From a virus (taxonomy: Duplodnaviria > Heunggongvirae > Uroviricota > Caudoviricetes): a stretch of 32,084 nt of DNA. Below the pieces are notes generated by a model, which saw only the letters and a list, made by a program, of their open reading frames with translations, was not told where the DNA came from and did no database searches. The position numbers and the translations under genes were made by a program. Shown here piece by piece: positions 1 through 30,722 of this stretch. The stretch lies in the IMG/VR virus record IMGVR_UViG_2802429222_000004, one strand, 5' to 3'. Each line of letters begins with the position of its first letter. The first letter of the stretch is position 1.

Positions 1-1014
1 TTACTCTACTGTGGACACTGTGTGGACACTCTCGGACCCAGTACCACCTCTTAGCGGATTAAGAGAAATGGCGTCCTGAAGGTACTCTGGCGCAAAATGA
101 GCGTAAACCATAGTTTGCTCAATCCGCGTGTGACCTAGTATCCGTTGTAGCGTGATAATACTTCCTCCATTAATCATGAAATGAGTGGCAAAGCTGTGCC
201 TTAGTGCATGTGTGGCTTGCCCCATTGGCAAATCCGGTTTTATTGCTTTCATTGTTCGTCTGAAGCGAGGGTAATCAGCATCAGGGAATAAAAAACCTCG
301 TTTGTTATCCGCGATCATTTTGGCAACAGCCTCTGAGATCGGGACGGTGCGTGGTTTGTTTGTTTTCGTTTTAACAAACGTGACGCGGTTATGGATGATA
401 TTTTCTGCTTTCAAACGAGCTGCTTCTCCCCAACGTGCTCCAGTACTCAGGCAAAGAATCGCAATCTTTTTGTTGTCTCCGTCAAGAGCAGCAAGCAGTA
501 AGGCAATTTCTTCCTGCGTGAGATAGCCTGTGTCTGGTTTTTCCTCCTTAAGCCTTTTTGTCCCTCTGATAGGGTGCTCACCAAAGAATAACTCCGCTTC
601 AATCAGGGCTGTAAACATGCCGCTAATACATGTTAAATCACGATTGATACTCGAAGGTTTAATACCCTGACTTCTTCGGGTGGCGCAGTACTGGCTGATA
701 AGCGATTTCGTAATTTGAAATGCGCATGGGTCATTCGTTATTTTTGTGAAGATTTCAATTTTTCCAAGATTAGATTTCCCATGCTCTTCGTGTTTACCCT
801 TTAAATCCCACCAGATCTGTGTCAGCTCCGACAGACGTCGCTTGTCTGTTGGTTTTGATAGCCATTCTTTATTGTGGTGGTTGTACAACGTGTATTTCTC
901 GAAAGCGACAGCTTCGCTTTTCTTATCAAACTTCCTACGGATGCGTTTTCCATTACGTCCAGTAGGGCGGATGTCCACTTCATATCGACCATCATCGAGT
1001 TTTTTGATTGCCAT
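1..1014 (-). CDS. int: Tyrosine integrase (P2 Int-like, 337 aa)
   Basis: 337 aa, the same length as P2 Int. C-terminal catalytic region HALRHSFATHF...LGHTRIEQTMVYAH carries the R/H/Y signature of tyrosine recombinases. It sits at the prophage end pointing toward att. Confidence 0.9.
   Translation of the reverse strand: MAIKKLDDGRYEVDIRPTGRNGKRIRRKFDKKSEAVAFEKYTLYNHHNKEWLSKPTDKRRLSELTQIWWDLKGKHEEHGKSNLGKIEIFTKITNDPCAFQITKSLISQYCATRRSQGIKPSSINRDLTCISGMFTALIEAELFFGEHPIRGTKRLKEEKPDTGYLTQEEIALLLAALDGDNKKIAILCLSTGARWGEAARLKAENIIHNRVTFVKTKTNKPRTVPISEAVAKMIADNKRGFLFPDADYPRFRRTMKAIKPDLPMGQATHALRHSFATHFMINGGSIITLQRILGHTRIEQTMVYAHFAPEYLQDAISLNPLRGGTGSESVHTVSTVE
10..29. repeat. Direct repeat TGTGGACAC x2, candidate Int arm-type binding sites (P' arm)
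   Basis: TGTGGACAC at 10-18 and 21-29. Similar TGTGG(T/A)C motifs occur at 30491-30510 on the other prophage arm. Confidence 0.5.
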
Positions 1015-1129
1015 CAGAAAACCCTCCGAGTGGTGTGTTTTTTTGCGACTACTAATCGCTTTTTTCGTGGTGGCTGAAATTTAGCCACCAATAGTAGGCA
1101 CTTGTGATGAATATATTCACGATGAATTG

Positions 1130-1429
1130 TTAACCAGTCTTTTGACCGGAGTGGGGCGACGTTGTTTCGTTTTGCCCAAAGTGTGCGAGAGCGGGCGCAA
1201 TTTGCCCGGACTCAGGAGCGATCTGATTGGTCATGAACCATAAAGTGTATTTGGTGAATTGTGGGGTCTGCAGGATGTTCATCATGACATCTGTTGGAGG
1301 TGTTGAACGACCACTTTCATAGTAACTCAGCGTGCCATACGGAACCCCTGTTAAATCAGCAAGTTGTTGTCTGCTCAAATACTCTGATTTTCGCATTAAG
1401 ACTATCTTCTCGCTTATCGTGTTTGACAT
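1130..1429 (-). CDS. C: Immunity repressor C (P2 C-like, 99 aa)
   Basis: 99 aa with an HTH segment (SRQQLADLTGVPYGTLSYYESG). Divergent from cox and directly upstream of int, as in P2. Confidence 0.85.
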   Translation of the reverse strand: MSNTISEKIVLMRKSEYLSRQQLADLTGVPYGTLSYYESGRSTPPTDVMMNILQTPQFTKYTLWFMTNQIAPESGQIAPALAHFGQNETTSPHSGQKTG

Positions 1430-1543
1430 GGTGTTTAGATCTCAATAGTATTTAGTTTAGATGTAGATTGTTTAGTGCTTGGATGTGGGCACTAAAAGGC
1501 ATTATAAGACATTAAACGCAATTCATGAGGGCTAGAGGACGAC
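1430..1543. promoter_or_regulatory. Lysis-lysogeny switch region (divergent Pc/Pe promoters and C operator repeats)
   Basis: Intergenic region between divergent C and cox. GTTTAGAT is directly repeated at 1433-1440 and 1455-1462 (22-bp spacing, two helical turns), with more TTTAG motifs through 1477. Confidence 0.55.
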
Positions 1544-1819
1544 ATGAGCAAGCAAGTAACACTCATGACTGATGCGATTCCTTATCAGGAGTTCGCAAAA
1601 CTAATAGGAAAATCGACAGGAGCGGTTCGTCGGATGATCGATAAAGGAAAGCTGCCTGTAATTGATATGACCGATCCACAATCAGCTTCAGGTCGTGCAG
1701 GTGAATATTGGGTATACCTTCCGGCATGGAATAACGGACTAAAACTGGCTTATGAAAGCCGCCCTAAAGAGATTCGTGACGGCTGGTTGATGTGGTTAGG
1801 TCTCGGTGAACCACGTTAA
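1544..1819 (+). CDS. cox: Cox excisionase / directionality factor (91 aa)
   Basis: 91 aa, the same size as P2 Cox. First gene of the rightward early operon, opposite C. Confidence 0.85.
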   Translation: MSKQVTLMTDAIPYQEFAKLIGKSTGAVRRMIDKGKLPVIDMTDPQSASGRAGEYWVYLPAWNNGLKLAYESRPKEIRDGWLMWLGLGEPR

Positions 1820-2000
1820 GGAGAACCGTATGAATGAGCCTCGTTGTATTGCTCAGTTACTGCGTAACGAAAGCCCCAGGGCGATTGACTTCACCATCAC
1901 CCACGGTAAGGGGCGTAAGGGAATCATTATCCGCACCAAAAAACAGAGTCCGTTAAAAAAGGCTCTGACCTTTCTGAAAAGCCGGAGGGTATGGAAATGA
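1806..2000 (+). CDS. Small early protein (P2 orf78 position)
   Basis: 64-aa ORF overlapping the cox stop and the B start, at the position of P2 orf78. Confidence 0.5.
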   Translation: MNHVKENRMNEPRCIAQLLRNESPRAIDFTITHGKGRKGIIIRTKKQSPLKKALTFLKSRRVWK

Positions 2001-2497
2001 CAGTGATGACGCTTAATCTCGTTGAAAAACAGCCAGCAGCTATGCGCCGGATAATTGGTAAGCATCTGGCCGTCCCTCGCTGGCAGGAGACATGCGATTA
2101 TTATAATCAGATGATGGAACGCGAACGGCTAACGGTTTGCTTTCATGCGCAGTTAAAACAGCGTCACGCAACGATGCGTTTTGAAGAAATGAACGACGTC
2201 GAACGTGAACGACTGGTATGTGCAATTGATGAATTGCGTGGGGCATTCTCAAAACGCCGTCAGGTCGGTGCAAGTGAGTATGCATATATTAGTTTTTTAA
2301 CAGTCAGTCAGCGTCGTACTTTATTTATGCATGCGGGATTGACAGAAAAAGAATTCAATCAGCCGTACTGGCGCATTAATGAAGAATCATGTTACTGGCG
2401 TGATGCTTTATTCCGTGCATTACGTGAATTATTCAGCCTGTTTGAGTATGCACCGACAATTCTGACGGCGGTAAAACCAGAGCAATATCTGCATTAA
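1991..2497 (+). CDS. B: Replication protein B (DnaB helicase loader-like, 168 aa)
   Basis: Position after cox and a size close to P2 B (166 aa). Confidence 0.75.
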   Translation: MEMTVMTLNLVEKQPAAMRRIIGKHLAVPRWQETCDYYNQMMERERLTVCFHAQLKQRHATMRFEEMNDVERERLVCAIDELRGAFSKRRQVGASEYAYISFLTVSQRRTLFMHAGLTEKEFNQPYWRINEESCYWRDALFRALRELFSLFEYAPTILTAVKPEQYLH

Positions 2498-2561
2498 ATA
2501 ATTAACCAGAGTTTTTAACGCACTTAATCGTGCGGGGGCTTCTTTTTGCCTGGAGAAAGTC

Positions 2562-2786
2562 ATGCATACAGTTTCTGAAAATCAGTGCGATAAATACGCA
2601 TTACTGCTGAAACAGGCCAGAACAGAAGCACAGGCCGACGCTGCGACGCGCTTTTCTTCTCATCTTGACGCCATGATTCGCCACATCACAAAGGCGGAGT
2701 TATCCCGCGTGGAGATAGTCGAGCTGCTCAGTCAGGAGTCGGAAAAATTTCACAATATCGGATTGTCTCGCGGGGAGGTGCTTTGA
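2562..2786 (+). CDS. Early hypothetical protein (P2 orf80 position)
   Basis: 74-aa ORF in the early operon between B and A. Confidence 0.6.
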
Positions 2787-3085
2787 TGTCCTGTTCTCGT
2801 TCGGTTGTATTACTGAATAACGCCTTAAAAATAGCTGTTATGGAAAATGGTGATTTGTCTCTTATTCAACTTTGTCTTGATAAAGAAAAACGCGACATAA
2901 CTGAATCTGTTATCGCGATTTATCAGAATGAATTAAACCTCCTGTCTGATGTGGTCAATTTACTTGTTAAACGCGCTGTGTTCCACAAACAAATTTCCTC
3001 AGTGGATGAACTGACAAAATTAACGACAGAACTCGCCAGTTATTGCGCTGATGTATCCAGGAAACTTAACGATAAAAGGAGCTGA
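2783..3085 (+). CDS. Early hypothetical protein (P2 orf81 position)
   Basis: 100-aa ORF whose start overlaps the preceding stop (translational coupling). Confidence 0.6.
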
Positions 3086-3087
3086 TA

Positions 3088-3312
3088 ATGCCGGACAACG
3101 TAGATTTTATTCAGGAACAACAGGCTGAATTACTGGAGCGCCAGATTAACGCGGCAAGGGTAAAACATTGCTGTGCTTCTGCGCTGGTTTGCGAAGAGTG
3201 TGACACGCCAATACCTGCTGCCCGTCGTGCGGCTTACCCGTCAGCCACGCGTTGTGTTTCCTGCCAGTCAGTCTTTGAAGCAAAAAACAAGCATTACCGG
3301 AGAATGGCATGA
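3088..3312 (+). CDS. TraR/DksA-like C4 zinc-finger protein (P2 orf82 position)
   Basis: 74 aa with CxxC...CxxC (CEECDTPIPAARRAAYPSATRCVSCQ), typical of the TraR/DksA C4 zinc-finger family. Confidence 0.7.
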   Translation: MPDNVDFIQEQQAELLERQINAARVKHCCASALVCEECDTPIPAARRAAYPSATRCVSCQSVFEAKNKHYRRMA

Positions 3313-3584
3313 GTATTCGTATCGAAATTGGCGAACGTTATGTCGTTACCAGTGACAGCTTTCAGTTTATTCTCCACGAGAAAAAGAGAGCGGAAAGCGG
3401 TAAAAACGCCGGTCAGGAATGGCTGGCGGTGGTTGGTTATTATCCGAAATTAAGCCAGCTCGTTTCCGGCCTGATGCATCACGATATTCTGACCGGAAGC
3501 GCAAAGTCTTTTGCTGATTTAAACGCGCAGGTTGAGCAACTCAGCAGGCGTTGTTCAGAGGCTTTTGGCTCATATGGACGTTAA
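3309..3584 (+). CDS. Early hypothetical protein (P2 orf83 position)
   Basis: 91-aa ORF coupled to the flanking genes. Confidence 0.6.
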   Translation: MSIRIEIGERYVVTSDSFQFILHEKKRAESGKNAGQEWLAVVGYYPKLSQLVSGLMHHDILTGSAKSFADLNAQVEQLSRRCSEAFGSYGR

Positions 3585-5844
3585 AGCCTCCGGGCGTTTT
3601 GTCCCTCCGTCAGCATTTGCCGCAGGCACCGGTAAGGCGTTTACCGGTGCTTATGCATGGAACGCGCCACGCGAGGCTGTCGGGCGCGAAAGACCCCTTA
3701 CACGTGACGAGATGCGTCAGGTGCAAGGTGTTTTATCCACGATTAACCGCCTGCCTTACTTTTTGCGCTCGCTGTTTACTTCACGCTATGACTACATCCG
3801 GCGCAATAAAAGCCCGGTGCACGGGTTTTATTTCCTCACATCCACTTTTCAGCGTCGTTTATGGCCGCGCATTGAGCGTGTGAATCAGCGCCATGAAATG
3901 AACACCGACGCGTCGTTGCTGTTTCTGGCAGAGCGCGACCAGTATGCGCGCCTGCCGGGGATGAATGACAAGGAGCTGAAAAAGTTTGCTGCCCGTATCT
4001 CATCGCAGCTTTTCATGATGTATGAGGAACTCTGCGATGCCTGGGTTGATGCACATGGCGAAAAAGAATCACTGTTTACGGATGAGGCTCAGGATCACCT
4101 GTATGGTCATGTTGCTGGCGCTGCACGAGCTTTCAATATTTCCCCTCTCTACTGGAAAAAATACCGTAAAGGACAGATGACCACGAGGCAGGCATATTCT
4201 GCCATTGCCCGTCTGTTTAACGATGAGTGGTGGACTCATCAGCTTAAAGGCCAGCGTATGCGCTGGCATGAGGCGTTACTGATTGCTGTCGGGGAGGTCA
4301 ATAAAGACCGTTCTCCTTATGCCAGTAAACATGCCATTCGTGATGTGCGTGCGCGCCGCCAGGCAAATCTGGAGTTTCTTAAATCATGTGACCTTGAAAA
4401 CAGGGAAACCGGCGAGCGCATCGACCTTATCAGTAAGGTGATGGGCAGTATTTCTAATCCTGAAATTCGCCGGATGGAGCTGATGAACACCATTGCCGGT
4501 ATTGAGCGTTACGCCGTCGCAGAGGGTGATGTGGGGATGTTTATCACGCTGACCACGCCGTCAAAGTATCACCCGACACGTCAGGTCGGAAAAGGAGAAA
4601 GTAAAACCGTCCAGCTTAATCACGGCTGGAACGATGAGGCATTTAATCCGAAGGATGCGCAGCGTTATCTCTGCCGTATCTGGAGCCTGATGCGCACGGC
4701 ATTCAAGGATAATGATTTACAGGTCTACGGTTTGCGTGTCGTCGAGCCACACCACGACGGAACGCCGCACTGGCATATGATGCTTTTTTGTAATCCACGC
4801 CAGCGTAACCAGATTATCGAAATCATGCGTCGCTATGCGCTCAAAGAGGATGGTAACGAAAGAGGAGCCGCGCGAAACCGTTTTCAGGCAAAACACCTTA
4901 ACCGGGGCGGTGCTGCGGGATATATCGCAAAATACATCTCAAAAAATATCGACGGCTATGCACTGGATGGTCAGCTCGATAACGATACCGGCAGGCCGCT
5001 GAAAGACACTGCAGCGGCTGTTACCGCATGGGCGTCAACGTGGCGTATCCCGCAATTTAAAACGGTTGGCCTGCCGACAATGGGCGCTTACCGTGAACTA
5101 CGCAAATTGCCTCGCGGCGTCAGCATTGCTGATGAGTTTGACGAACGCGTCGAGGCTGCACGCGCCGCCGCAGACAGTGGTGATTTTGCGTTGTATATCA
5201 GCGCGCAGGGTGGGGCAAATGTTCCGCGCGATTGTCAGACTGTCAGGGTTGCCCGTAGTCCGTCGGATGAAGTTAACGAGTACGAGGAAGAAGTCGAGAG
5301 AGTGGTCGGCATTTACGCGCCGCATCTCGGCGCGCGTCATATTCATATCACCAGAACGACGGACTGGCGCATTGTTCCGAAAGTGCCGGTCGTTGAGCCT
5401 TTGACTTTAAAAAGCGGCATCGCCGCGCCTCGGAGTCCTGTCAATAACTGTGGAAAGCTTGCCGACGGTGGCGATCCAGTTATGACACCTACGCCGTCTG
5501 AGCATGCCGCAGCGGTGCTAAATCTTGTCGATGATGGGGTTATTGCATGGGATGACCCCGAAGTTGTGACGGTGCTCAGGAGTGCATTAAAACACGGCGC
5601 GCCGCAGCAAAATCGACAGCAAAGAAGCGATGAGCCATTAAAATCGAATCAGATAGCACCATCAGGGCGAATGACAAAAGCCGAGAGGGCTCAGATTCCG
5701 CGCATCCGCTTCGAACTGGCGCAGCAGGGTATCACGCCGCAGCGGTGGGAACTTCAGGCGCTGGCTCGTGGCGGAATAGTGGTTTATGGCGAAAAAAGAT
5801 TTGTATACCCGATAGCGGACGAGTGGGTGAAGCATGAAGGGTGA
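3574..5844 (+). CDS. A: Rolling-circle replication initiator endonuclease A
   Basis: Large ORF (track 3532..5844) at the position of P2 A. The ATG at 3574 (MDVKASGRF...) gives about 756 aa, close to P2 A (761 aa). The exact start is uncertain. Confidence 0.85.
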   Translation: MDVKASGRFVPPSAFAAGTGKAFTGAYAWNAPREAVGRERPLTRDEMRQVQGVLSTINRLPYFLRSLFTSRYDYIRRNKSPVHGFYFLTSTFQRRLWPRIERVNQRHEMNTDASLLFLAERDQYARLPGMNDKELKKFAARISSQLFMMYEELCDAWVDAHGEKESLFTDEAQDHLYGHVAGAARAFNISPLYWKKYRKGQMTTRQAYSAIARLFNDEWWTHQLKGQRMRWHEALLIAVGEVNKDRSPYASKHAIRDVRARRQANLEFLKSCDLENRETGERIDLISKVMGSISNPEIRRMELMNTIAGIERYAVAEGDVGMFITLTTPSKYHPTRQVGKGESKTVQLNHGWNDEAFNPKDAQRYLCRIWSLMRTAFKDNDLQVYGLRVVEPHHDGTPHWHMMLFCNPRQRNQIIEIMRRYALKEDGNERGAARNRFQAKHLNRGGAAGYIAKYISKNIDGYALDGQLDNDTGRPLKDTAAAVTAWASTWRIPQFKTVGLPTMGAYRELRKLPRGVSIADEFDERVEAARAAADSGDFALYISAQGGANVPRDCQTVRVARSPSDEVNEYEEEVERVVGIYAPHLGARHIHITRTTDWRIVPKVPVVEPLTLKSGIAAPRSPVNNCGKLADGGDPVMTPTPSEHAAAVLNLVDDGVIAWDDPEVVTVLRSALKHGAPQQNRQQRSDEPLKSNQIAPSGRMTKAERAQIPRIRFELAQQGITPQRWELQALARGGIVVYGEKRFVYPIADEWVKHEG

Positions 5845-6170
5845 TTTATATCCATCTAAATCATGATGTTATGATGGCCGTGTGAGTTCTTTTCTGATTG
5901 GGGCTGCGTTCGACGGCTTGAAATGTTGTAAATGCTCATAATCTGGTTTAAAGTGTTTTTATGCCAACGACTAGGAGCATCTCCAGTCATAAATGTTGGC
6001 CTCTACAGGCCTTTATATAGTGTTGCTCTTGTACTGCCTTCTCTTTCGAGAGAAGGTATGTACAAGAAGTAAAGCCTGCGAAGGGAGGGTGTCTGGGGTG
6101 AGGAAAGACTGAGAGTTAAAGCATTCATCTTAGAATCCATTCAACTCAAAAAACAAAAGCTCAGCCAACG
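5845..6170 (+). ncRNA. Putative retron msr-msd non-coding RNA region (boundaries not resolved)
   Basis: About 330 bp of non-coding DNA directly upstream of a retron-sized RT. It contains a 39-nt hairpin at 6028-6066 (stems CTTGTAC/GTACAAG and CCTTCTCT/AGAGAAGG, TTCG loop), a GGCC-TCTACA-GGCC hairpin at 5998-6011, and a -35-like TTGAAA at 5918-5923. Confidence 0.4.
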
Positions 6171-7160
6171 ATGAAACCCCTTAGTCTCGAAAAAGCCTTC
6201 AATATTGCATTCTTCGAAAAAGATTCCTTTCAAAACTTTCTTTCGTTTGAACCATTTCAACAAACTAAATTTATAACCTTTGATGAAAGGTTAATTGCTG
6301 AGCCCACTTCTAAACTAAAAGAGTATCACAAATTCATAAATGAATTTGTTCTTTCATACTTGAAAGTAAATAAGGATGTTGTGTTTTCGTATAGAAAAGG
6401 AAGCAGCACTTATGATGCAGTAAAACTTCACGCCTGTAGTAAGATATTCTTCAATACTGATATTAAAAGCTTTTTCCCATCGATAACTCGTGAATATGCA
6501 CGATCAGTTTTAGTTGATAACTTATCGAACGTTCCCATTTCCGATTTAAATATACACTTGGATAAAATTTTAGATTATATTATTATCGATAATTCGTTGC
6601 CTGTAGGGTTCCCGACATCACCAGCTTTCAGCAATGCATGTTTATATGACTTTGATGTTGAGATGCAGCAATATTGTATTAACCATGAATATATATTCAC
6701 ACGCTATTCAGATGATATTATTATTTCCTCTGAAAATGATGAGGGCTTTGAGAATATTCATTCTGTAGTAAGTGACCTGCTGGGTGAGTTTGGGAAGGGA
6801 CATTTCAAACTAAACTCAGCAAAAACTAAATTGATTAAAAAAGGCAGTAAGATTAAGCTGCTGGGGATGGTTATTTTACCGTCTCAGATAGTCTCTGTTG
6901 ATATTAAAATAAAAAGAAAGCTTGAGCATTTGATTCATTTTTATGTAACGGATAAAGATAAATTTATAGATTCTATAATAAAAGATCCTAAGGTTAAAAC
7001 TAGCGGATTGAATGATAGTGAGATCTTGGAAAAGGGCGTTAATACAGTTTCTGGTCTTTTGAATCATATAAACACAATTGATAAGAGTTATCTCGATAAG
7101 CTAAAGAGAAAATACGGAAATACGATTGTCGATATGCTTTTTTACAAGAATGTAAATTAA
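6171..7160 (+). CDS. Reverse transcriptase, retron-type size (329 aa)
   Basis: RT motifs read directly: TDIKSFFPSI (domain 1/2), LPVGFPTSPAFSNACL (domain 4), and catalytic YSDD within IFTRYSDDIIIS (nt 6705-6716). Low GC compared with the flanking phage genes. Confidence 0.8.
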   Translation: MKPLSLEKAFNIAFFEKDSFQNFLSFEPFQQTKFITFDERLIAEPTSKLKEYHKFINEFVLSYLKVNKDVVFSYRKGSSTYDAVKLHACSKIFFNTDIKSFFPSITREYARSVLVDNLSNVPISDLNIHLDKILDYIIIDNSLPVGFPTSPAFSNACLYDFDVEMQQYCINHEYIFTRYSDDIIISSENDEGFENIHSVVSDLLGEFGKGHFKLNSAKTKLIKKGSKIKLLGMVILPSQIVSVDIKIKRKLEHLIHFYVTDKDKFIDSIIKDPKVKTSGLNDSEILEKGVNTVSGLLNHINTIDKSYLDKLKRKYGNTIVDMLFYKNVN

Positions 7161-7161
7161 A

Positions 7162-8514
7162 ATGAAAATAAACATTGAGATCTCGAAAATCCAGCATGTT
7201 GAACATATGTCATTTGCTATTGATCTTTCTGAAAATAAACTGACTTGCATTGTAGGAAAGAACGGTGCTGGAAAGACAACGCTAATCAAAGCAATTAAAA
7301 ATTTACAATCAGCAGATACATTCATAAAGACATCTTCTAGATATATATTCAATCCTGACAGTAGTATAGTATATAATATTAATGATCAAGATATAGTATA
7401 TGTCTATGATGAGAATTTGAAGGTAATAGATACTAAGCAAATAATTCCAGCAGATATAAAATCCAATCTTTATGTCGAGTTGCCCATTCCTCATGGAATG
7501 AGGTTCAATAACTTCCCAACACTTAGTAAAATTGATACTGAACTTAGAAAAAGTATTGCGTTTGAAAGCTATAGCGTTCCCGAGGATTTGATAAATATAC
7601 TCAATGAGGTATATCAGTCTTCTTCTTACAATAATCTTAAAGCATTTTCTGTAAAAAATGAAATTTTCTATTTCAGATTGAATGAGAACGGAACATACAT
7701 AAGGGAGGATTACTTTAGCTCGGGTGAGTATTTTATTTTGAATTTATTTAGAATGATTGAGCTCAAAAGAAAATTCATTGTCATAGATGAGATAGATATA
7801 TCACTAGACTCTTCGGCGCAAGTCCATCTTATAGCAGTGCTAAGGAAATATTGTCAGAGACACTCGGTGAATATTGTATTCACAACACATTCACTTGCTT
7901 TAATGCAAACGCTGAATGATGATGAATTGTACTATATGTGCGAAGGTGATGCTGGAACTACAATTACAAATCGATCATATAATTATATAAAAAGTACGCT
8001 TTTTGGATTTAAAGGATGGGATAAGTACATTCTTACTGAAGATGAAGTTCTGCAAAATTTCTTAGAATATATAATTAATGCTCCTGGGAGTGATTACTTC
8101 TACGAATATAAAATAATATATGTTGGTGGAGGAACTAATGTCATTGATTTAATGCGTCGTAATGAGAGAGAGAGCTTTCTCACGACTCAACAGAATGTGA
8201 TCTCAGTGTTAGACGGAGATCAATTAGGTCAAAGGCATGCTCGAGGTGAAAATATTTTATGCATACCTTTCCAAAGCGTTGAGAAGGATTTCTATCAAGC
8301 ATACGGCCAAGATGAATCGATCCCGAGAGTTACAACTAGAGGTAACGATAAACTTGATAAGCAAGTTTATCGAGGGGTAGTGAAAACCTATGACAACGGT
8401 TGGGATGAAACTAGGATTTTTGAATACCTTGAGAGGTTAAAGCCTGATGAATGTGAGGCTTTCAGGCAAAAAATTAGAGCATTTCTCCAAAGAAATATTT
8501 CGGCAGAGGGTTGA
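7162..8514 (+). CDS. OLD-family ABC ATPase with C-terminal TOPRIM-like domain (450 aa)
   Basis: Walker A GKNGAGKTT (nt 7255-7281), signature-like FSSGEY, Walker B FIVIDEID, H-loop TTHSLA. The C-terminal half has TOPRIM-like motifs YILTEDE, VGGGTN and VLDGDQ. The start is 2 nt after the RT stop, so the two are one operon. Confidence 0.75.
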   Translation: MKINIEISKIQHVEHMSFAIDLSENKLTCIVGKNGAGKTTLIKAIKNLQSADTFIKTSSRYIFNPDSSIVYNINDQDIVYVYDENLKVIDTKQIIPADIKSNLYVELPIPHGMRFNNFPTLSKIDTELRKSIAFESYSVPEDLINILNEVYQSSSYNNLKAFSVKNEIFYFRLNENGTYIREDYFSSGEYFILNLFRMIELKRKFIVIDEIDISLDSSAQVHLIAVLRKYCQRHSVNIVFTTHSLALMQTLNDDELYYMCEGDAGTTITNRSYNYIKSTLFGFKGWDKYILTEDEVLQNFLEYIINAPGSDYFYEYKIIYVGGGTNVIDLMRRNERESFLTTQQNVISVLDGDQLGQRHARGENILCIPFQSVEKDFYQAYGQDESIPRVTTRGNDKLDKQVYRGVVKTYDNGWDETRIFEYLERLKPDECEAFRQKIRAFLQRNISAEG

Positions 8515-8656
8515 ATATAAGCTTCGGGATCTCATGCCTCTCTATCTGCATGAAATTGCATTTGATAATTCCTATTTTTCTCGTGAACTGTGTCACGTTA
8601 GGCGCAGCTCAGGGCTCATAATGCATCTGCATTAAAACCGCCCCACGAAGCGGGCG

Positions 8657-8675
8657 GGCGAGGCGGGGAAAGCAC
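8657..8675. other. cos site (19-nt cohesive end GGCGAGGCGGGGAAAGCAC)
   Basis: Matches the P2 cohesive-end sequence as I recall it, and lies about 170 bp from the end of Q, as in P2. Confidence 0.6.
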
Positions 8676-8814
8676 TGCGCGCTGGCGGTGGTGCGGATTT
8701 TATTTTTTCAGCGTCTGAGCGCGTCGTGACGGCGTTTAGATTGTGCGCCGGGGCATTGGTGTGTCTGCGGGGTGTTTTGTGCGGTGGTGAGCGTGTGAGG
8801 TCGTGATGACGGGA

Positions 8815-8839
8815 TATAAAAAAGCCGCCCGCAGGCGGC
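8815..8839 (-). terminator. Rho-independent terminator after Q
   Basis: On the minus strand: GCCGCC-TGCG-GGCGGC hairpin followed by TTTTTT, immediately downstream of the Q stop. Confidence 0.7.
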
Positions 8840-8844
8840 GATGT

Positions 8845-9879
8845 TCAGCCGTTGTCAGTGTCCAGTGAGTAGTTTTTAAAGCGGATGACCTCCTGACCGA
8901 GCCAGCCGTTTATCTCGCGGATCCTGTCCTGTAACGGGATAAGCTCATTGCGGACAAAGACCTTTGCCACTTTCTCAATATCGCCCAGTGACCCGACGTT
9001 CTCCGGCTTGCCCCCCATCAACTGAAAGGGGATGCGGTGCGCGTCCAGCAGGTCAGCGGCGCTGACTTTTTTGATATTAAAAAAATCGTCCTTCGTTGCC
9101 ACTTCACTGAGCGGGATAATTTTAATGCCGTCGGCTTTTCCCTGTGGGGCGTAGAGAAACAGGTTTTTAAAGTTGTTGCGGCCTTTCGACTTAACCATGT
9201 TTTCGCGAAGCATTTCGATATCATTGCGATCCTGCACGGCATCGGTGACGTACATGATGTATCCGGCATGTGCGCCATTTTCGTAATACTTGCGGCGGAA
9301 CAGCGTGGCCGACTCATTCAGCCAGGCAGAGTTAAGGGCGCTGAGATATTCCGGCAGGCCGTACAGCTCCTGATTAATATCCGGCTCCAGCAGGTGAAAC
9401 ACGGAGCCGGTCGCGAAGGCTGTCGGCTCGTTGAAGGACGGCACCCACCAGTAAACATCCTCCTCCACGCCACGGCGGGTATATTTTGCCGGTGAGGTTT
9501 CCAGTCTGATGACCTTACCGGTGGTGCTGTAACGCTTTTCCAGAAACGCATTGCCGAACACCAGAAAATCCAGCACAAAGCGGCTGAAATCCTGCTGGGA
9601 AAGCCACGGGTGCGGGATAAACGTTGAAGCCAGAATATTGCGTTTAACGTAAATCGGCGAGCTGTGATGCACGGCAGCACGCAGGCTTTTTGCCAGACCG
9701 GTAAAGCTGACCGGCGGTTCATACCATCTGCCGTTACTGATGCACTCGACGTAATCCAGAATGTCACGGCGGTCGAGTACCGGCACCGGCTCACCAAAGG
9801 TGAATGCCTCCATTTTCGGGGCGCTGGCGGTCATTTTTTTTGCCGCAGGTTGCGGTGTTTTCCCTTTTTTCTTGCTCAT
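8845..9879 (-). CDS. Q: Portal protein Q (344 aa)
   Basis: 344 aa, the same length as P2 Q. Leftward, adjacent to cos, overlapping the terminase gene by 1 nt. Confidence 0.9.
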   Translation of the reverse strand: MSKKKGKTPQPAAKKMTASAPKMEAFTFGEPVPVLDRRDILDYVECISNGRWYEPPVSFTGLAKSLRAAVHHSSPIYVKRNILASTFIPHPWLSQQDFSRFVLDFLVFGNAFLEKRYSTTGKVIRLETSPAKYTRRGVEEDVYWWVPSFNEPTAFATGSVFHLLEPDINQELYGLPEYLSALNSAWLNESATLFRRKYYENGAHAGYIMYVTDAVQDRNDIEMLRENMVKSKGRNNFKNLFLYAPQGKADGIKIIPLSEVATKDDFFNIKKVSAADLLDAHRIPFQLMGGKPENVGSLGDIEKVAKVFVRNELIPLQDRIREINGWLGQEVIRFKNYSLDTDNG

Positions 9880-11651
9880 CAGTAAAACTCCAGAATGGTG
9901 GATGTCAGCGGGGTGCTGATACCGGCGGTGAGTGGCTCATTTAACAGGGCGTGCATGGTCGCCCAGGCGAGGTCGGCGTGGCTGGCTTCCTCGCTGCGGC
10001 TGGCCTCATAGGTGGCGCTGCGTCCGCTGCTGGTCATGGTCTTGCGGATAGCCATGAACGAGCTGGTGATGTCGGTGGCGCTGACGTCATATTCCAGACA
10101 GCCACGGCGGATAACGTCTTTTGCCTTGAGCACCATTGCGGTTTTCATTTCCGGCGTGTAGCGGATATCGCGCGCGGCAGGATAGAACGAGCGCACGAGC
10201 TGGAACACGCCGACACCGAGGCCGGTGGCATCAATACCGATGTATTCGACGTTATATTTTTCGGTGAGTTTGCGGATGGATTCAGCCTGGGTGGCAAAGT
10301 CCATGCCTTTCCACTGGTGACGCTCAAGTATTCTGAATTTACCTCCGGCCACCACCGGCGGTGCCAGCACCACGCATCCGGCGCTGTCGCCACGGTGTGA
10401 CGGGTCGTAACCAATCCATACCGGGCGGGAGCCGAACGGATTGGCGGCAAACGGCGCATAGTCTTCCCATTCTTCCAGCGTGTCGACCATGCAGCGTTGC
10501 AGCTCCTCGAACGGGAACACCGACGCCTTGTCGTCAACAAATTCACACATGAACAGGTTTTTAAAATCGTCGGCGCTGTTTTCGCGTTTAAGCTGCTCAA
10601 TGTCGAAGAGCGTGCAGCCGCCTTTCAGGGCGTCCTCAATGGTGACAATCTGCCGCCACTGGCCGTCCGCACAGAGAAGCCCACCGGCAAGGGCGTTATG
10701 ACTGACGTCGATTTCCACGCGTTCAGCGGCGCTGGCGCGTCCCCGGTTAAACAGTTCACCCGACCAGAACGGGTAGGCGTCGTGCGCCAGCGTGGACGGG
10801 GTGGAGAAATAGGTCGAGCGCAGGTGACTCTGTGAGGCCATACCAGATGCCACCTTACGCAGCACCTGAAAATTCGGGATCCAGAAAATCTCGTCGACGT
10901 ACAGGTCGCCGTTATGGCTCTGTGCGGTGTTGGAGTTGGTGCCGAGAAAAATCAGTTTTGCGCCGTTATTGCCCAGGACAATCGGGTCACCGGTCAGGTC
11001 AACGTCAACCAGACGGGCAAAGGCGATGATGTATTCACGGAACACATACGCCTGCGTTTTACTGGCCGACAGAAAAATCTGGTTATGACCGGTTTTCAGG
11101 GCACGCAGCAGCGCCTCGCGGGAGAAATAAAACGTTGCGCCAATCTGGCGGGATTTCAGGATATCGCGGATGCGGTGCTCAAGCCCGGCGCGATACCAGT
11201 GCAACTGATAGTCGAAAGACTGCTCAAAGAAAATCTGCTCCAGCTTTTCGATAGCCTCGTCACTGAAAAAATTCTTTTTCGGTTTGCGACGCCCGCCTTT
11301 GTTGCGGTTAGCGACGTTCGGATTAAGGTCTGCCTCGTTGCCGGTCTGGCTGTAGCGGTTTACCCGTGCCAGTCGTTCAATCTGGCGTCCCAGCAGGTCA
11401 ATTTCCTTGAAGTCACCGCCGGTTTTCTGCGGTTTGATGATGAGCTGGGTCAGCCGCGCTTCCAGACTCATTTCGACACGGCTGATGGGGGCAACGCTGT
11501 CCCAGCCGTCGCGCTGTTTCCAGCTCTGCACCGTCGGGCGTTTCATCTGCAACATGGCGGCAATCTGCGGCACGGAAAATCCCTGCCAGTACAGCAGCGC
11601 CGCCTGACGACGTGGGTCGTGTAAAAGAGTGGTGTCTGTGGTGATGGTCAT
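9879..11651 (-). CDS. P: Terminase large subunit P (590 aa from the internal ATG)
   Basis: Track ORF 9879..11681. Starting at the MTITTD methionine gives 590 aa, the same as P2 P. Divergent from O. Confidence 0.9.
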   Translation of the reverse strand: MTITTDTTLLHDPRRQAALLYWQGFSVPQIAAMLQMKRPTVQSWKQRDGWDSVAPISRVEMSLEARLTQLIIKPQKTGGDFKEIDLLGRQIERLARVNRYSQTGNEADLNPNVANRNKGGRRKPKKNFFSDEAIEKLEQIFFEQSFDYQLHWYRAGLEHRIRDILKSRQIGATFYFSREALLRALKTGHNQIFLSASKTQAYVFREYIIAFARLVDVDLTGDPIVLGNNGAKLIFLGTNSNTAQSHNGDLYVDEIFWIPNFQVLRKVASGMASQSHLRSTYFSTPSTLAHDAYPFWSGELFNRGRASAAERVEIDVSHNALAGGLLCADGQWRQIVTIEDALKGGCTLFDIEQLKRENSADDFKNLFMCEFVDDKASVFPFEELQRCMVDTLEEWEDYAPFAANPFGSRPVWIGYDPSHRGDSAGCVVLAPPVVAGGKFRILERHQWKGMDFATQAESIRKLTEKYNVEYIGIDATGLGVGVFQLVRSFYPAARDIRYTPEMKTAMVLKAKDVIRRGCLEYDVSATDITSSFMAIRKTMTSSGRSATYEASRSEEASHADLAWATMHALLNEPLTAGISTPLTSTILEFY

Positions 11652-20517: not shown

Positions 20518-23136
20518 ATGAGCACGAAATTTAAAACCGTTATCACTACTGCCGGAGCCGCAAAGCTGGCAGCCGCCACTGTCCCCGGCGGGAAAAAAGT
20601 AAACCTGTCTGCAATGGCCGTGGGTGATGGTAATGGCAAATTGCCGGTGCCGGATACCGGTCAGACGAAGCTGGTGCATGAGGTCTGGCGTCATGCCCTG
20701 AATAAAGTCAGCGTGGATAATAAGAATAAAAACTATATCGTGGCTGAACTGGTTGTTCCGCCAGAAGTGGGCGGCTTCTGGATGCGTGAGCTTGGTCTGT
20801 ATGACGATGCCGGAACACTGATTGCGGTATCCAACATGGCAGAAAGCTATAAGCCTGAACTCGCTGAAGGCTCCGGGCGTGCGCAGACCTGCCGCATGGT
20901 TATTATTGTCAGTAACGTGGCGTCCGTTGAGCTGAGTATTGATGCCAGCACGGTGATGGCGACGCAGGATTACGTCGATGACAAAATCGCAGAGCATGAG
21001 CAGTCCCGCCGCCATCCTGACGCCACACTGACAGAAAAAGGCTTTACTCAGTTAAGCAGCACAACAAACAGCACCAGTGAAAAGCTGGCGGCAACGCCAA
21101 AGGCAGTAAAAGCAGCCTATGACAATGCTGAGAAACGTCTGCAGAAAGACCAGAACGGTGGCGATATTCCAGATAAGGGCGCTTTTCTGGACAATGTTGG
21201 CGTTACCAGCCTGACGTTTATGAAAAACAACGGCGAAATGCCGGTTGATGCTGATCTGAATACATTTGGTCCCGTTAAAGCTTATCTGGGTACATGGTCA
21301 AAAGGCACTTCGACTAATGCACAGATAGCCAAACACTTCCCGGAAGAGAATGCCGTTGGTGTCCTGGAAGTATTTGCAGCAGGAAATTTTAACGGAACAC
21401 AGCGTTACACTGTTCGCAATGGAAATACTTATATTCGCCACCTGACGGCTAAATGGAACGGCAAAGATGGTCCGTGGAGCGTATGGCGTAACGTTCAGGG
21501 GACGGCCAGAACGCTGGATGACAGTATGGATCTCGATTTTCTGGCCGGGGAGGATAACCTGGGTACATGGAGAAACAGTTCCAGTACGTTAGCTTCTCTT
21601 GCGTTGCACTATCCCGAAGCTGGTAGTTACGCGCAGGGAGTGCTTGAAGTTATGAAAGGTGGTGGATTCAGTTATACCCAGCGTTATACCACTCGCCGTG
21701 GGAACATGTATGTCCGCTGCCTTGCTGCAAACTGGGATGCATCAAACCCACAGTGGGAACCGTGGCTGAGAATTGGCAGCCAGACTGCAAGCAGCTTTTA
21801 TGACGGTGATTTGAATGATCTAACCGACCCTGGTATTTACAGTGTGACGGGTAAAGCAACCAATGGTCCATTGCTGGATTCATCTGGTGCAACACTACTA
21901 GGGGTGTTAGAGGTTATCAGACGTTTTGATTACGTTGCTGTATTGCAACGCTATACCACTACAGGGACAGGAACGACAACGAAAGGTCGCACGTTTGAGC
22001 GCGTCTATACCGGCAGTTCGTGGAGCGAATGGCGGGAAGTCTACACCTCGTATTCACTTCCCCTGAATCTGGGTATCGGCGGTGCTGTGGCAAAGCTCAC
22101 TAGCCTGGACTGGCAGACCTACGACTTTGTGCCGGGCAGTCTGATAACCGTTCGGCTTGATAACATGACCAACATTCCCGACGGTATGGACTGGGGCGTC
22201 ATTGATGGCAACCTGATAAACATCGCAGTTGGTCCGAGTGATGATTCCGGTACGGGGCGCTCAATGCATGTATGGCGCAGCACTGTAAGTAAAGCGAACT
22301 ACCGCTTTTTTATGGTGCGTATTTCAGGAAATCCGGGAAGCCGCACGATCACGACAAGACGTGTGCCAATTATTGACGAAGCTCAGACATGGGCGGCGAA
22401 ACAGACATTCAGCGGTGGTCTTTCAGGCGAACTGTCCGGCAATGCGGCTACAGCAACAAAGCTGAAAACGGCAAGGACAATTAACGGCGTAAAATTTGAC
22501 GGCTCGGCAAATATTGAAGCGTTTCCGCCAGGTGTTCCGCTGCCGTGGCCATCAGATACACCACCTGCAGGCTATGCAATTATGCAGGGGCAGACGTTTG
22601 ATAAGGCAGCATATCCGAAACTGGCTATAGCCTATCCTTCTGGTGTTATTCCGGATATGCGCGGTTGGACAATCAAGGGCAAACCCGCCAGTGGGCGTGC
22701 TGTATTGTCACAGGAACAGGACGGGATTAAATCGCATACTCACAGCGCCAGTGCGTCAAATACGGATTTGGGAACGAAAACAACCAGTTCGTTTGATTAC
22801 GGGACGAAGACAGTCAGTACGTTTAACTACGGAACAAAAACCACTAATACCACTGGTAACCATACACATACCATTTACAGAGGGAATGCCAATACTAATG
22901 GTGAAACCGGTAAAACAGGCTTTGACAACCCATCGTTTAATGGCACATCAGGAGCTGCCGGGAATCATGCCCACACGGTAGATATTGGTGCACATAATCA
23001 TACGGTTGGTATTGGTGCACATTCACACACGGTTGCTATTGGCTCACACGGGCACTCTATTACCGTTAATGCTACAGGTAATACAGAAAACACCGTCAAA
23101 AACATCGCATTTAACTATATTGTGAGGCTTGCATAA
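20518..23136 (+). CDS. H: Tail fibre protein H (872 aa, mosaic extended C-terminus)
   Basis: The N-terminus ([24 protein letters not shown]...) is the conserved P2 H-type baseplate-attachment domain. The C-terminal part is longer than P2 H (669 aa) and ends in GTKT and HxHT repeats. Confidence 0.85.
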
Positions 23137-23714
23137 TGGCTTTCAGAATGAGTGCAGAAGCACAAACTATCCGCGTTTTCAATTTACTTAATGGAACCAA
23201 TGAGTTTATTGGCGAAAGTGATGCATATATTCCGCCGTATACTGGCCTGCCTGCAAACAGTACAGATATTGCACCGCCTGATATTCCTGCTGGTTATGCA
23301 GCCGTTTTCAATGCAGATGAAATGAAATGGGAACTGATGGAAGACCATCGCGGAAAGACCGTCTACGAAACGAAAACAGGAGCAGCCATTTATATTTCTG
23401 AACTTGGCGTATTACCTCCAGACGTGACAGCTATTTCCCCGGAGGGGGATTATCAGAAATGGGACGGAAATGCGTGGGTGAATGATGAGAATGCAGAACG
23501 TGATGCGCTTGTCAGAGCGGCGGAGTCTCAGAAGAAAGAGCAGATTGCATATGCAGGTGAAATTATTGCCACGCTGCAGGATGCTGTCGATTTAGATATG
23601 GCTACCGAGGAAGAAAAGTTAAGCCTGACACACTGGAAAAAATACCGTGTGCTACTGAATCGCGTTCAGCCGGAAAATGCCCCGGATATTGAATGGCCGG
23701 AACTACCGCAATAA
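23136..23714 (+). CDS. G: Tail fibre assembly chaperone G (192 aa)
   Basis: Start overlaps the H stop, at the position of P2 G. Confidence 0.8.
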
Positions 23715-28506: not shown

Positions 28507-28986
28507 ATGATGCTCGCGTTAGGGATGTTTGTTTTTATGCGCCAGACGCTGCCACACCAGACCATGCAGCGTGAATCAGATTATCGCTGGCCGTCAAATT
28601 CCCGTATCGGTAAACGGGATGCCTACCAGTTTCTCGGTGTGGGTGAGGAAAACATGACGCTGGCCGGTGTGCTTTATCCCGAACTGACCGGCGGCAAGCT
28701 GACGATGACCACGCTCAGGCTGATGGCAGAGGAGGGACGGGCGTGGCCGTTGCTGGATGGCACCGGCATGATTTACGGCATGTATGTCATCAGCAGGGTG
28801 AGTGAAACAGGGAGTATTTTCTTTGCAGACGGCACACCCCGGAAAATTGATTTTACGCTGTCACTCACCCGCGTTGATGAATCACTGGCCGCGCTTTATG
28901 GCGATATCGGTAAACAGGCGGAGTCGCTCATCGGTAAGGCCGGTAGTCTGGCGACCAGATTCACGGGTATGACGGGGGCGGGATAA
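28507..28986 (+). CDS. U: Tail protein U (159 aa)
   Basis: 159 aa, matching P2 U. Confidence 0.85.
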   Translation: MMLALGMFVFMRQTLPHQTMQRESDYRWPSNSRIGKRDAYQFLGVGEENMTLAGVLYPELTGGKLTMTTLRLMAEEGRAWPLLDGTGMIYGMYVISRVSETGSIFFADGTPRKIDFTLSLTRVDESLAALYGDIGKQAESLIGKAGSLATRFTGMTGAG

Positions 28987-30149
28987 TGCTGGATGCGCTG
29001 ACATTTGATGCAGGCAGTACGCTGACGCCGGATTACATGCTGATGCTCGACAGCAGGGATATTACCGGCAATATCAGTGACCGTCTGATGAGCATGACCC
29101 TGACGGATAACCGGGGCTTTGAGGCTGACCAGCTTGATATTGAACTGAACGACGCCGACGGGCAGGTCGGGCTACCGATTCGTGGCGCTGTCCTGACGGT
29201 GTATATCGGCTGGAAAGGTTTTGCCCTGGTATGCAAAGGGAAATTTACCGTTGATGAGGTTGAACACCGGGGCGCGCCGGATGTGGTTACCATCCGCGCC
29301 CGGAGTGCAGACTTCCGCGGGACGCTTAATTCCCGCCGGGAAGGCTCCTGGCATGACACCACGCTCGGTGCGATTGTTGAGGCGATAGCCTCCCGTAACA
29401 GGCTGGAAGCCAGTGTCGCTCCGTCACTGGCCGGAATTAAAATCCCGCACATCGACCAGTCGCAGGAGTCTGATGCGAAATTCCTGACCCGTCTTGCAGA
29501 ACGCAACGGCGGTGAGGTGTCGGTAAAAATGGGAAAACTGTTGTTTCTCAAAGCGGGGCAGGGGGTGACGGCCAGCGGTAAAAAAATCCCGCAGGTCACC
29601 ATCACCCGCAGCGACGGCGACCGCCATCATTTTGCGATTGCTGACCGTGGAGCCTATACCGGCGTAACGGCAAAGTGGTTACACACCAAAGACCCGAAAC
29701 CACAAAAGCAGAAGGTAAAACTGAAACGCAAAAAGAAAGAGAAACACCTGCGCGCACTGGAGCACCCGAAAGCGAAACCGGTCACGCAGAAGAAAGCGCC
29801 AAAAGCACCGGAAGCGCGCGAAGGTGAATACATGGCAGGTGAAGCTGACAACGTTTTTGCCCTGACCACGGTATATGCCACAAAAGCGCAGGCCATGCGT
29901 GCCGCTCAGGCGAAGTGGGATAAACTGCAACGGGGCGTTGCGGAGTTCTCCATCATCCTGGCTACCGGTCGTGCAGATATTTACACGGAAACACCGGTCA
30001 GAGTGTCTGGCTTTAAGCGCGTCATAGACGAGCAGGACTGGACAATCACTAAGGTGACACATTTTCTGAATAATAGCGGCTTCACGACGTCCTTAGAGCT
30101 TGAGGTCAGGCTTTCTGATGTGGAGTATGAAACAGAAGATGAAGAGTGA
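28986..30149 (+). CDS. D: Tail protein D (387 aa)
   Basis: 387 aa, matching P2 D. Last gene of the tail operon. Confidence 0.85.
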   Translation: MLDALTFDAGSTLTPDYMLMLDSRDITGNISDRLMSMTLTDNRGFEADQLDIELNDADGQVGLPIRGAVLTVYIGWKGFALVCKGKFTVDEVEHRGAPDVVTIRARSADFRGTLNSRREGSWHDTTLGAIVEAIASRNRLEASVAPSLAGIKIPHIDQSQESDAKFLTRLAERNGGEVSVKMGKLLFLKAGQGVTASGKKIPQVTITRSDGDRHHFAIADRGAYTGVTAKWLHTKDPKPQKQKVKLKRKKKEKHLRALEHPKAKPVTQKKAPKAPEAREGEYMAGEADNVFALTTVYATKAQAMRAAQAKWDKLQRGVAEFSIILATGRADIYTETPVRVSGFKRVIDEQDWTITKVTHFLNNSGFTTSLELEVRLSDVEYETEDEE

Positions 30150-30230
30150 TGATTTATATTTATCTGTTTGTTTTATAAGGATAAGTTAACTAAAATGGCA
30201 CCATCAACAAAACCGGAAGAGGTGCTCGCG

Positions 30231-30449
30231 ATGTTTCATTGTCCTTTATGCCAGCATGCCGCACATGCGCGTACAAGCCGCTATATCACTGACACGACAA
30301 AAGAGCGTTATCACCAGTGCCAGAACGTGAATTGCAGCGCCACGTTCATCACTTATGAGTCGGTACAGAGATACATCGTGAAGCCGGGAGAAGTCCACGC
30401 CGTAAGGCCGCACCCGTTGCCATCAGGGCAGCAAATTATGTGGATGTAA
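30231..30449 (+). CDS. ogr: Late gene transcriptional activator Ogr (zinc finger, 72 aa)
   Basis: The internal ATG at 30231 gives MFHCPLCQHAAHARTSRYITDTTKERYHQCQNVNCSATF..., the Ogr C2C2 zinc-finger protein, 72 aa (track ORF 30168..30449). Confidence 0.9.
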   Translation: MFHCPLCQHAAHARTSRYITDTTKERYHQCQNVNCSATFITYESVQRYIVKPGEVHAVRPHPLPSGQQIMWM

Positions 30450-30462
30450 TTACAAACAGAAA

Positions 30463-30486
30463 GCCCCTCAGTCGAGGGGCTTTTTT
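30463..30486 (+). terminator. Rho-independent terminator after ogr
   Basis: GCCCCTC-AGTC-GAGGGGC hairpin followed by TTTTTT. Confidence 0.75.
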
Positions 30487-30550
30487 GTCGATGTGGTCAA
30501 TGTGTGGACGTGACCAGAAATAAATCCTTTTATTTCAATTGATTATGCAT

Positions 30551-30637: not shown

Positions 30638-30639
30638 GA

Positions 30640-30700
30640 AACAGATAATAACCTTAATAAATGCAGCCGTATGTGATCGGTTTCTAAGAATTTTCTATCC
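30640..30700 (-). promoter_or_regulatory. cyaR promoter with candidate class II CRP site
   Basis: On the cyaR strand, a TATTAT -10 sits 7 nt upstream of the inferred +1. A TGTGA-N6-TCTAA element at 30672-30687 is centred about 41.5 bp upstream of +1. Confidence 0.5.
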
Positions 30701-30722
30701 GGGGAAAAATAATCGAAATGAA

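Follow-up and report, generated by a model that had tools for sequence, protein, structure and literature searches.

Type I-B1 retrons were defined bioinformatically by Mestre et al. 2020 (PMC7736814), whose Table 1 contains no described I-B1 member, and Class 3B OLD nucleases have been identified as their effectors (PMC10568477). Among retrons with an OLD nuclease, Retron-Eco8 alone has been studied mechanistically; its reverse transcriptase (RT), msr-msd hybrid and OLD nuclease assemble into an autoinhibited tetramer. The SSB of the phage, a protein that binds single-stranded DNA, binds the msDNA (multicopy single-stranded DNA) and frees the nuclease, which then degrades phage and host DNA, so that the infection is aborted (PMC13402713). 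Type I-A retrons are likewise reported to sequester an ATPase-nuclease. In P2-like phages, the interval between gpA and gpQ is a defence hotspot with diverse cargo, and retrons are included in its published catalogue (Rousset et al. 2022, Cell Host Microbe, PMC9122126). Here we describe one such locus in the IMG/VR record IMGVR_UViG_2802429222_000004, a 32,084-nt stretch of Caudoviricetes DNA that was analysed as a whole and is hereafter referred to as the window. In it, an AT-rich island at 5845-8640 encodes an RT and an ATPase.

The island had previously been singled out from its letters alone as a sharp compositional island between the conserved gene A and cos flanks, taken to mark recent acquisition of an RT cassette by recombination at those flanks. 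Our analysis indicates that it is very probably the gpA-cos cargo slot of a P2-like prophage filled by a self-contained type I-B1 retron, and that its low GC content is lasting and does not date the acquisition. The parts of the retron would be its own promoter, a structured noncoding RNA (ncRNA; msr/msd), the RT and an OLD-family ATPase-Toprim nuclease.

Reverse transcriptase, effector and retron type

The genes in the island are ordered ncRNA, RT, effector (Table 1), and the open reading frames (ORFs) of RT and effector are intact and separated by 1 nt. RefSeq holds proteins identical to both, labelled "reverse transcriptase family protein" and "AAA family ATPase". All of the best 25 PADLOC matches of the RT are retron types. 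Among NCBIfam models, retron_St85_RT scored 178 bits against the RT, compared to ~40 bits for Drt2 and Drt3a, and no NCBIfam model reached its own cut-off for either the RT or the effector. Among solved structures, the nearest relatives of the RT belong to the Ec78, Ec83 and St85 group of retron RTs (E 3e-22 to 3e-15), and the match to the Eco8 RT is weak (E 4e-8).

The effector matches the Pfam families AAA_21, AAA_15 and ABC_tran. It carries a Walker A motif (GKNGAGKT, residues 32-39), a Walker B motif (D209/E210), an H-loop (H243), and the Toprim motifs IV (E293-D-E-V-L) and V (D351-G-D353), all of which are invariant in 55 homologues of 47-93% identity. As a PDB sequence search with the effector returned only generic P-loop/ABC matches, we predicted its structure and searched for its fold. 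The AlphaFold2 (AF2) model has a mean pLDDT of 87.4, and its first Foldseek match in the PDB is the T. scotoductus OLD nuclease 6P74 (5e-13), followed by GajA 8X5I (3e-11) and the PtuA ATPases of type I-A retrons. The TM-scores of these fold matches are 0.32-0.37, which is expected for a multidomain protein without the dimerisation insert. The Eco8 effector was absent from the PDB sequence matches at E <= 1e-5, from the 60 best listed at E <= 5, and from the top 50 fold matches. The model thus predicts an ABC-ATPase plus Toprim fold of the OLD family, and the protein is a predicted nuclease. We also noticed that, among relatives, the OLD effector is consistently better conserved than the RT, at 66-77% compared to 57-65% identity (loci L073-L075 and L081).

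Based on the ncRNA-RT-effector order, on Toprim motifs of the forms EDxxL and DxD, and on an RT whose affinity is to clade 1, we assign the system to type I-B1, with a Class 3B OLD effector; as judged by homology, it is a member of this group, and we found no difference from other type I-B1 retrons in gene order, in motif IV (EDxxL), in motif V (DxD) or in the clade of the RT. An ncRNA with an msr-like hairpin and a long candidate msd stem-loop lies directly adjacent to the RT gene, as is characteristic of retrons.

Retron-Eco8 (type I-B2, Class 3A OLD) likewise combines an RT and msDNA with an OLD-family ATPase-Toprim nuclease. Unlike the system in the window, however, it has a clade-3 RT, an effector located 5′ of the RT and an EGxxE motif IV, whereas the effector in the window is located 3′ and has EDEVL at this position. 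Membership in the Retron-Eco8 group was rejected on the RT clade (E 4e-8), the gene order and motif IV. Type I-A retrons (Ec78/Eco7 and Ec83/Eco4, with PtuA as ATPase and PtuB as HNH protein) have the closest solved RTs (E 1e-19 to 1e-16) and a related ATPase fold, but their nuclease is a separate HNH protein with no fused Toprim domain, and their ncRNA belongs to a different family. The main text of a retron census preprint has no entry for the I-B types.

The locus lies between the replication gene A and cos/portal gene Q, the position of the P2-like gpA-gpQ hotspot, with the same conserved flanks and variable anti-phage content, and nothing essential differs in the window. The RT and effector sequences of the window were not found in the portion of the supplementary tables of Rousset et al. 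2022 that was searched. In phage P2 itself (locus L079, 30316-33574), the interval from the A stop codon to cos holds orf91, tin and old, with old/tin being the founding example of the hotspot. The P2 slot encodes Old, the founding OLD-family ATPase-Toprim nuclease, and the window has a retron-linked OLD nuclease at the same position; different OLD-family systems therefore occupy one phage locus.

Promoter and noncoding RNA

To the loci of known relatives we added 80 further loci from metagenomes, collected with the RT alignment as query. A TTGnnn-16..18-TAnnnT motif ends 12-16 nt (mode 14) 5′ of an invariant 20-nt hairpin (P2, see below) in 50/52 non-identical I-B1 loci, compared to 1.2 expected in shuffled sequences. 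Taken alone, the promoter in the window matches at 8/12 positions and is under the threshold of a generic scan, but its position is conserved, and because of this positional conservation we infer that the retron has its own promoter. Transcription would start at about 5961.

The structured ncRNA spans about 5961-6078. The fold z-score of 5860-6170 is -3.4 compared to shuffles, and in relatives of 84-91% identity the noncoding part is the best conserved of the cassette (88-92%, compared to 84-89% for the genes). Inside the 5′ stem-loop, the P2 element at 5969-5988 is a 20-nt hairpin, GACTAGGAGCATCTCCAGTC, that is identical in 47/47 distinct sequences, while all 6 pairs of the surrounding P1 stem are changed on both sides in 5-11 of the 47. 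Of 90 related loci, 67 have the 20-nt hairpin, GACTAGGAGYATCTCCAGTC, 5′ of the RT, with no nucleotide difference even where the RTs are only 36-48% identical to that of the window. RNAalifold on 8 relatives returned both the nested stem-loop at 5963-6000 and the long hairpin, with compensatory changes at 5 pairs of the latter, which is the candidate msd (Table 1).

A candidate closing helix, possibly the equivalent of the a1/a2 duplex, is formed by CAGGCC (6005-6010) and AGCCUG (6073-6078). Only members of the enterobacterial subgroup show it when folded as single sequences, and nothing but the long hairpin would lie within it. All a1/a2 candidates, this helix included, are short or imperfect, and none covaries convincingly. 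Pairings of GGCUU (5914-5918) or GGUUU (5945-5949) with AAGCC (6072-6076) were rejected because both 5′ partners lie upstream of the predicted transcription start.

These observations raise the question of whether type I-B1 retrons use a non-canonical ncRNA layout. Pointing toward this are the predicted start only ~2 nt before stem P1 (which encloses GACUAGGAGYAUCUCCAGUC), the identity of this hairpin in loci with RTs of 36-48% identity, the lack of an evident a1/a2 duplex, a candidate closing helix around the msd hairpin only, and a sister group with the long hairpin 5′ of this element. We consider such a layout unlikely. A closing helix around the msd alone would leave the RT-recognition element outside, and if the layout is indeed non-canonical, the priming geometry, and possibly what the OLD effector senses, would be unlike those of every retron studied so far.

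Two further observations concern the ncRNA of relatives. In a sister group (L080, L105, L110, L117, L120, L138, L144 and L145), the hairpin has the variant form GACTGGAG...CTCCTAGTC, and a long GC-rich hairpin flanked by UCUAC/GUAGA sits 5′, not 3′, of it, giving a layout that looks permuted. The metagenomic contig L116 contains the invariant 20-nt hairpin twice (at 2136 and 5561), ~3.4 kb apart, and may carry two adjacent I-B1 retrons.

Composition of the island

GC content is 0.344 over 5845-8640, compared to 0.483 in the left flank (1-5844) and 0.551 in the right flank (8641-end). Across 474 intervals of 2796 nt without overlap with the island, GC content has a mean of 0.543, a standard deviation of 0.037 and a minimum of 0.441, placing the island ~5 standard deviations below the mean. 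In a 500-nt sliding profile, GC content is 0.54-0.57 across the 3′ half of gene A, drops to 0.30-0.36 at ~6000-8500 and then recovers to 0.53-0.59. The drop is present at every codon position and is largest at the third, where GC content (GC3) is 0.306 in the RT and 0.297 in the ATPase, compared to 0.542 in gpA, 0.664 in Q and 0.705 in P. The sliding-window calculation that the original prediction had proposed as its own check, together with the values by codon position, bears out a compositional island, with a GC drop relative to both flanks.

Two-change-point likelihood segmentation of 3600-11000 delimited the low-GC segment as 6104-8579, with a log-likelihood gain of 155. The 2-log-likelihood support for its edges is loose on the left (5824-6131) and tight on the right (8570-8602). 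The left edge is stepped because the 326-nt noncoding stretch 5845-6170 has an intermediate GC content of 0.417.

Other compositional traits that had been ascribed to the island were borne out to different degrees. Its two proteins are indeed rich in lysine, asparagine and isoleucine, which together make up 27.4% and 23.8% of residues, compared to 13.6-21.1% in six backbone proteins. Runs of at least six A/T are only slightly enriched, at 1.8 per kb in the island compared to 1.4 per kb elsewhere, so that the supposed long A/T runs are weakly true. The description of the backbone as GC-rich applies to gpA and the late genes (0.53-0.63) but not to the early region 1-3250 (0.43-0.49).

The inference that fails is that of recent acquisition from composition. 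Retron relatives with 57-91% RT identity occupy the gpA-cos slot of Kluyvera, Dickeya and six IMG/VR P2-like contigs at a GC content of 0.30-0.33, within backbones or flanks of 0.47-0.57, and the orf91-tin-old slot of phage P2 has a GC content of 0.351. In each of the 32 independent I-B1 loci whose flanking sequence was long enough to compare (32/32), the cassette has a lower GC content than the flanks (means 0.351 and 0.505; Wilcoxon p = 5e-10), and cassette GC rises with flank GC (r = 0.69), up to 0.47 in a 0.71 context. Because relatives down to 57% RT identity and all 32 loci show the same offset, the GC deficit is long-lived and family-wide. Low GC content is a persistent signature of this mobile lineage of defence genes, ~0.15-0.2 below the carrier genome, and carries no date stamp.

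Slot boundaries and cassette exchange

Breakpoints were read against loci L003, L004, L005 and L076 and against sequenced Peduovirus phages, and the slot was surveyed in 52 P2-like prophages of other Enterobacterales, located via gpA, and in 5426 complete E. coli genomes. In comparisons with 2c3, EH41, E. albertii, E. ruysiae and Escherichia sp., homology on the left ends at 5802-5826, 6-14 codons before the A stop codon, and resumes on the right at 8609-8621. In the 113 records of sequenced Peduovirus phages, the alignment begins at 8619-8622. The variable region therefore covers 5803/5827-8620, starting in the last gpA codons and ending 36 nt before the cohesive-end (cos) 19-mer. The ends originally given for the island, at the conserved A and cos flanks, lie within 20-40 nt of these breakpoints, which were mapped by the very comparison across P2-like prophages that had been suggested as a check.

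Since the variable region already takes in the last 6-14 gpA codons (5803-5844), the C-terminus of the replication protein varies together with the cargo. The tail reads ...DEW|VKHEG* in the window and ...DEW|LGYSTVSEWN... in E. ruysiae (L004). At the left junction, a 10-nt inverted repeat, TGATTTATAT/ATCTAAATCA, spans the gpA stop codon at 5842-5863. At the other end, the last 58 nt of the variable part (8583-8640) are 98% identical to the prophage of E. coli O157:H7 TR01 (H11), which is without the retron; right-hand junctions are therefore not all at 8620/8621.

The content of the slot varies widely. The A-to-Q distance is 1.05-6.8 kb in the 52 prophages, the slot ORFs are unrelated, and slot GC content (0.34-0.50) is below both flanks in 52/52. 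The 140 slot ORFs match 281 PADLOC families at E <= 1e-10, including IetAS, PDC-M03, AbiL and Dru. By homology, then, the cargo of the slot appears to consist of anti-phage systems, including that of the window. Of the 5426 E. coli genomes, 1734 contain the left arm 1-5844, with alignments ending at 5771-5802, and 10 contain the retron cassette.

Over the early region, the prophages of E. coli 2c3 and EH41 match the window at 96.6-98.4% identity, but their slots contain unrelated genes. Conversely, the prophage of E. coli A15 (L002) is divergent in its backbone (73-85% identity in gpA, 74-77% in Q and P) and yet is 97.6-99.2% identical over 5701-8615, which includes the cassette. Mismatch positions place the edges of the shared A15 tract at ~5545-5583 and ~8626-8641, such that it takes in ~290 nt of the gpA 3′ end and stops ~20 nt before cos. 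In strain LR-45, the cassette is 100% identical and the prophage, which has an unrelated integrase, is inserted beside pflA. The presence of the same cassette in divergent backbones (A15 and LR-45) means that the last transfer is younger than the divergence of the backbones.

Judging from these alignments, the cassette has moved recently between divergent backbones, and the A15 tract (~5550-8640) marks the extent of its most recent exchange. Exchange of cassettes by recombination in conserved flanks among P2-like phages, as the original prediction had it, is well supported by the breakpoint comparisons, with other cargo in the same backbone (2c3, EH41) and the same cargo in other backbones (A15, LR-45). 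The right junction is at most ~40 nt from cos in every comparison, a position that fits the suggestion that cos ends take part in cargo exchange (PMC9122126).

Alternative explanations

One could still take the low GC content as a time stamp, with the cassette having recently come from a low-GC source beyond P2-like phages and enterobacteria and not yet having ameliorated. The contrast is large (GC 0.34 compared to 0.55; GC3 0.30 compared to 0.54-0.70), the cassette is rare in E. coli, and its copies are nearly identical wherever found. However, relatives whose RTs are as little as 57-65% identical have a GC content of 0.30-0.33 in this slot, and there has therefore been no amelioration over a long residence. 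Moreover, the RT relatives of at least 53% identity with a named source are all Enterobacterales, and the offset in all 32 I-B1 loci, together with its correlation with flank GC, fits a maintained offset and not a single low-GC source. A single low-GC donor was accordingly rejected on the persistence of the offset across relatives, and we consider the time-stamp explanation very improbable. A reading that would complement a lasting GC deficit, and that we regard as possible but somewhat doubtful, is that AT-richness is functionally maintained, for example because H-NS-type silencing represses the toxic nuclease in the lysogen. The AT offset is family-wide and persistent, all P2-slot cargo in the 52 prophages is similarly AT-rich, and the abstract of a 2026 preprint claims that H-NS binds and silences immunity genes on AT-rich mobile elements. 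On the other hand, H-NS binding at this locus is hypothetical, mutational bias under weak selection on accessory genes could equally give an AT bias, and the retron carries its own conserved promoter.

The identification as a retron can itself be questioned, since the RT and ATPase could belong to another RT-based defence system (DRT, Abi-P2 or AbiK-like) or be a decayed remnant. Odegrip et al. are said to have described, in 2006, a different functional RT gene in the same variable locus of P2-like coliphages; neither a1/a2 nor the branching G could be assigned, and the NAxxH and VTG motifs of the RT are altered. Yet the DRT models score far below retron_St85_RT, the best PADLOC matches are without exception retron types, a conserved RNA whose structure includes a long variable hairpin is found directly 5′ of the RT, neither ORF is disrupted, and 55 effector and 20 RT homologues have the same catalytic residues throughout. 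We therefore hold a non-retron origin to be hardly credible. Several points nevertheless weigh against the type I-B1 retron that we favour. No canonical a1/a2 repeats or branching G could be assigned by inverted-repeat search, minimum free energy (MFE) folding, RNAduplex in 8 relatives or inspection of 59 anchored sequences, and Rfam gave no match for the ncRNA (5400-9000, E <= 1). The retron RT signatures are altered, from NAxxH to NACLY and from VTG to LLG (LLGM). N155, L158 and G232 are invariant in 20 RT homologues while the H and the VT are replaced; the altered signatures are common to all of the I-B1 group rather than peculiar to the window copy. The searchable literature, in which we found no experimental work on any I-B1 retron (Class 3B OLD effector), reports no msDNA, defence phenotype or nuclease activity for one. 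No related RT was found in the 50,697 phage records of INPHARED, searched with the cassette DNA and the RT protein, which leaves prophages and IMG/VR contigs as the only documented carriers. Finally, the recombination pathway, which would combine homologous exchange in gpA with a cos-proximal event, is deduced from the positions of the breakpoints.

Prophage context

The whole window is a complete P2-like (Peduovirus-type) prophage. Its early and replication genes comprise an integrase (1-1014, - strand), a C-type repressor, Cox, B, two DUF5405 proteins and gpA. On the late side are the Q portal (- strand), the P terminase, capsid, lysis, tail and tail-fibre genes and gpD (28986-30149), and a host peptidase-U32 gene (30723-32084) closes the window. 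The cos 19-mer, GGCGAGGCGGGGAAAGCAC, has a single exact match in the window, at 8657-8675, and equals the annotated cosL of phage P2 (NC_001895). The closest relative prophages in E. coli adjoin yegR.

The integrase-immunity module (1-1800) is ~67-71% identical to that of LR-45 and A15 and 98% identical to that of strain 2c3. Both the early/immunity region (1-3250) and the right prophage end past gpD (30000-31000) are below the GC content of the late genes, at 0.43-0.49. The prophage is therefore mosaic, with three modules or more. GC content also dips, less strongly than in the island, at 22750-23500 (0.43-0.44), where the tail-fibre gene (20518-23136) encodes its C-terminal part and the tail-fibre assembly gene (23136-23714) begins; this patch could be a separately exchanged host-range module.

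Table 1. Features of the gpA-cos slot and its flanks in the window
Feature	Position	Strand	Basis and details
gpA replication endonuclease, conserved left flank	3574-5844	+	Pfam Phage_GPA 409 bits; RefSeq annotation of the colinear LR-45 prophage
Tract common to the window and divergent E. coli A15 at 98-99%	5550-8640	.	Segment identities and mismatch positions compared to L002
Variable cargo region of the gpA-cos hotspot	5827-8620	.	No homology to P2-like prophages with other cargo; GC ~0.34
Predicted sigma-70 promoter	5926-5954	+	-35 TTGTAA 5926-5931, 17-nt spacer, -10 TAAAGT 5949-5954
5′ stem-loop of the retron ncRNA (msr-like)	5963-6000	+	Outer stem P1 pairs 5963-5968 with 5995-6000 and encloses P2
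Long stem-loop, candidate msd (msDNA template)	6020-6075	+	RNAalifold consensus
Retron RT, 329 aa, YSDD active site	6171-7160	+	PADLOC RT_I-B 365 bits, full length; Pfam RVT_1
Retron effector, predicted OLD-family ABC-ATPase plus Toprim nuclease (Class 3B OLD), 450 aa	7162-8514	+	PADLOC ATPase-Toprim_I-B 595 bits, full length
Conserved right flank	8621-8675	+	Homology to P2-like phages resumes at 8621
gpQ portal, first late gene right of cos	8845-9879	-	Pfam Phage_portal; RefSeq annotation of colinear prophages

Discussion

If it works as Retron-Eco8 and the type I-A retrons do, the RT would copy the long ncRNA hairpin into msDNA, and RT, msDNA and the OLD nuclease would assemble into an autoinhibited complex. 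An infecting phage would then perturb the msDNA, and the freed nuclease would degrade DNA and abort the infection. We expect the I-B1 system to follow the logic of Retron-Eco8 in this way. The benefit would be that the lysogen population and the prophage are guarded against competing phages, as is annotated for old and tin of P2.

The finding is correct and well delimited but of an already known kind, as the hotspot, its retrons and this retron subtype have all been published. It adds a well-mapped further example of the swappable defence slot beside cos in P2-like phages, in which cargo moves faster than the backbones diverge. It also indicates that GC content is unfit for dating the acquisition of defence cargo, given that this retron lineage has a GC deficit of ~0.15-0.2 in every carrier genome. 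With its predicted promoter, ncRNA elements and catalytic residues, the E. coli copy is a handy candidate for a first functional or structural study of an I-B1 retron.

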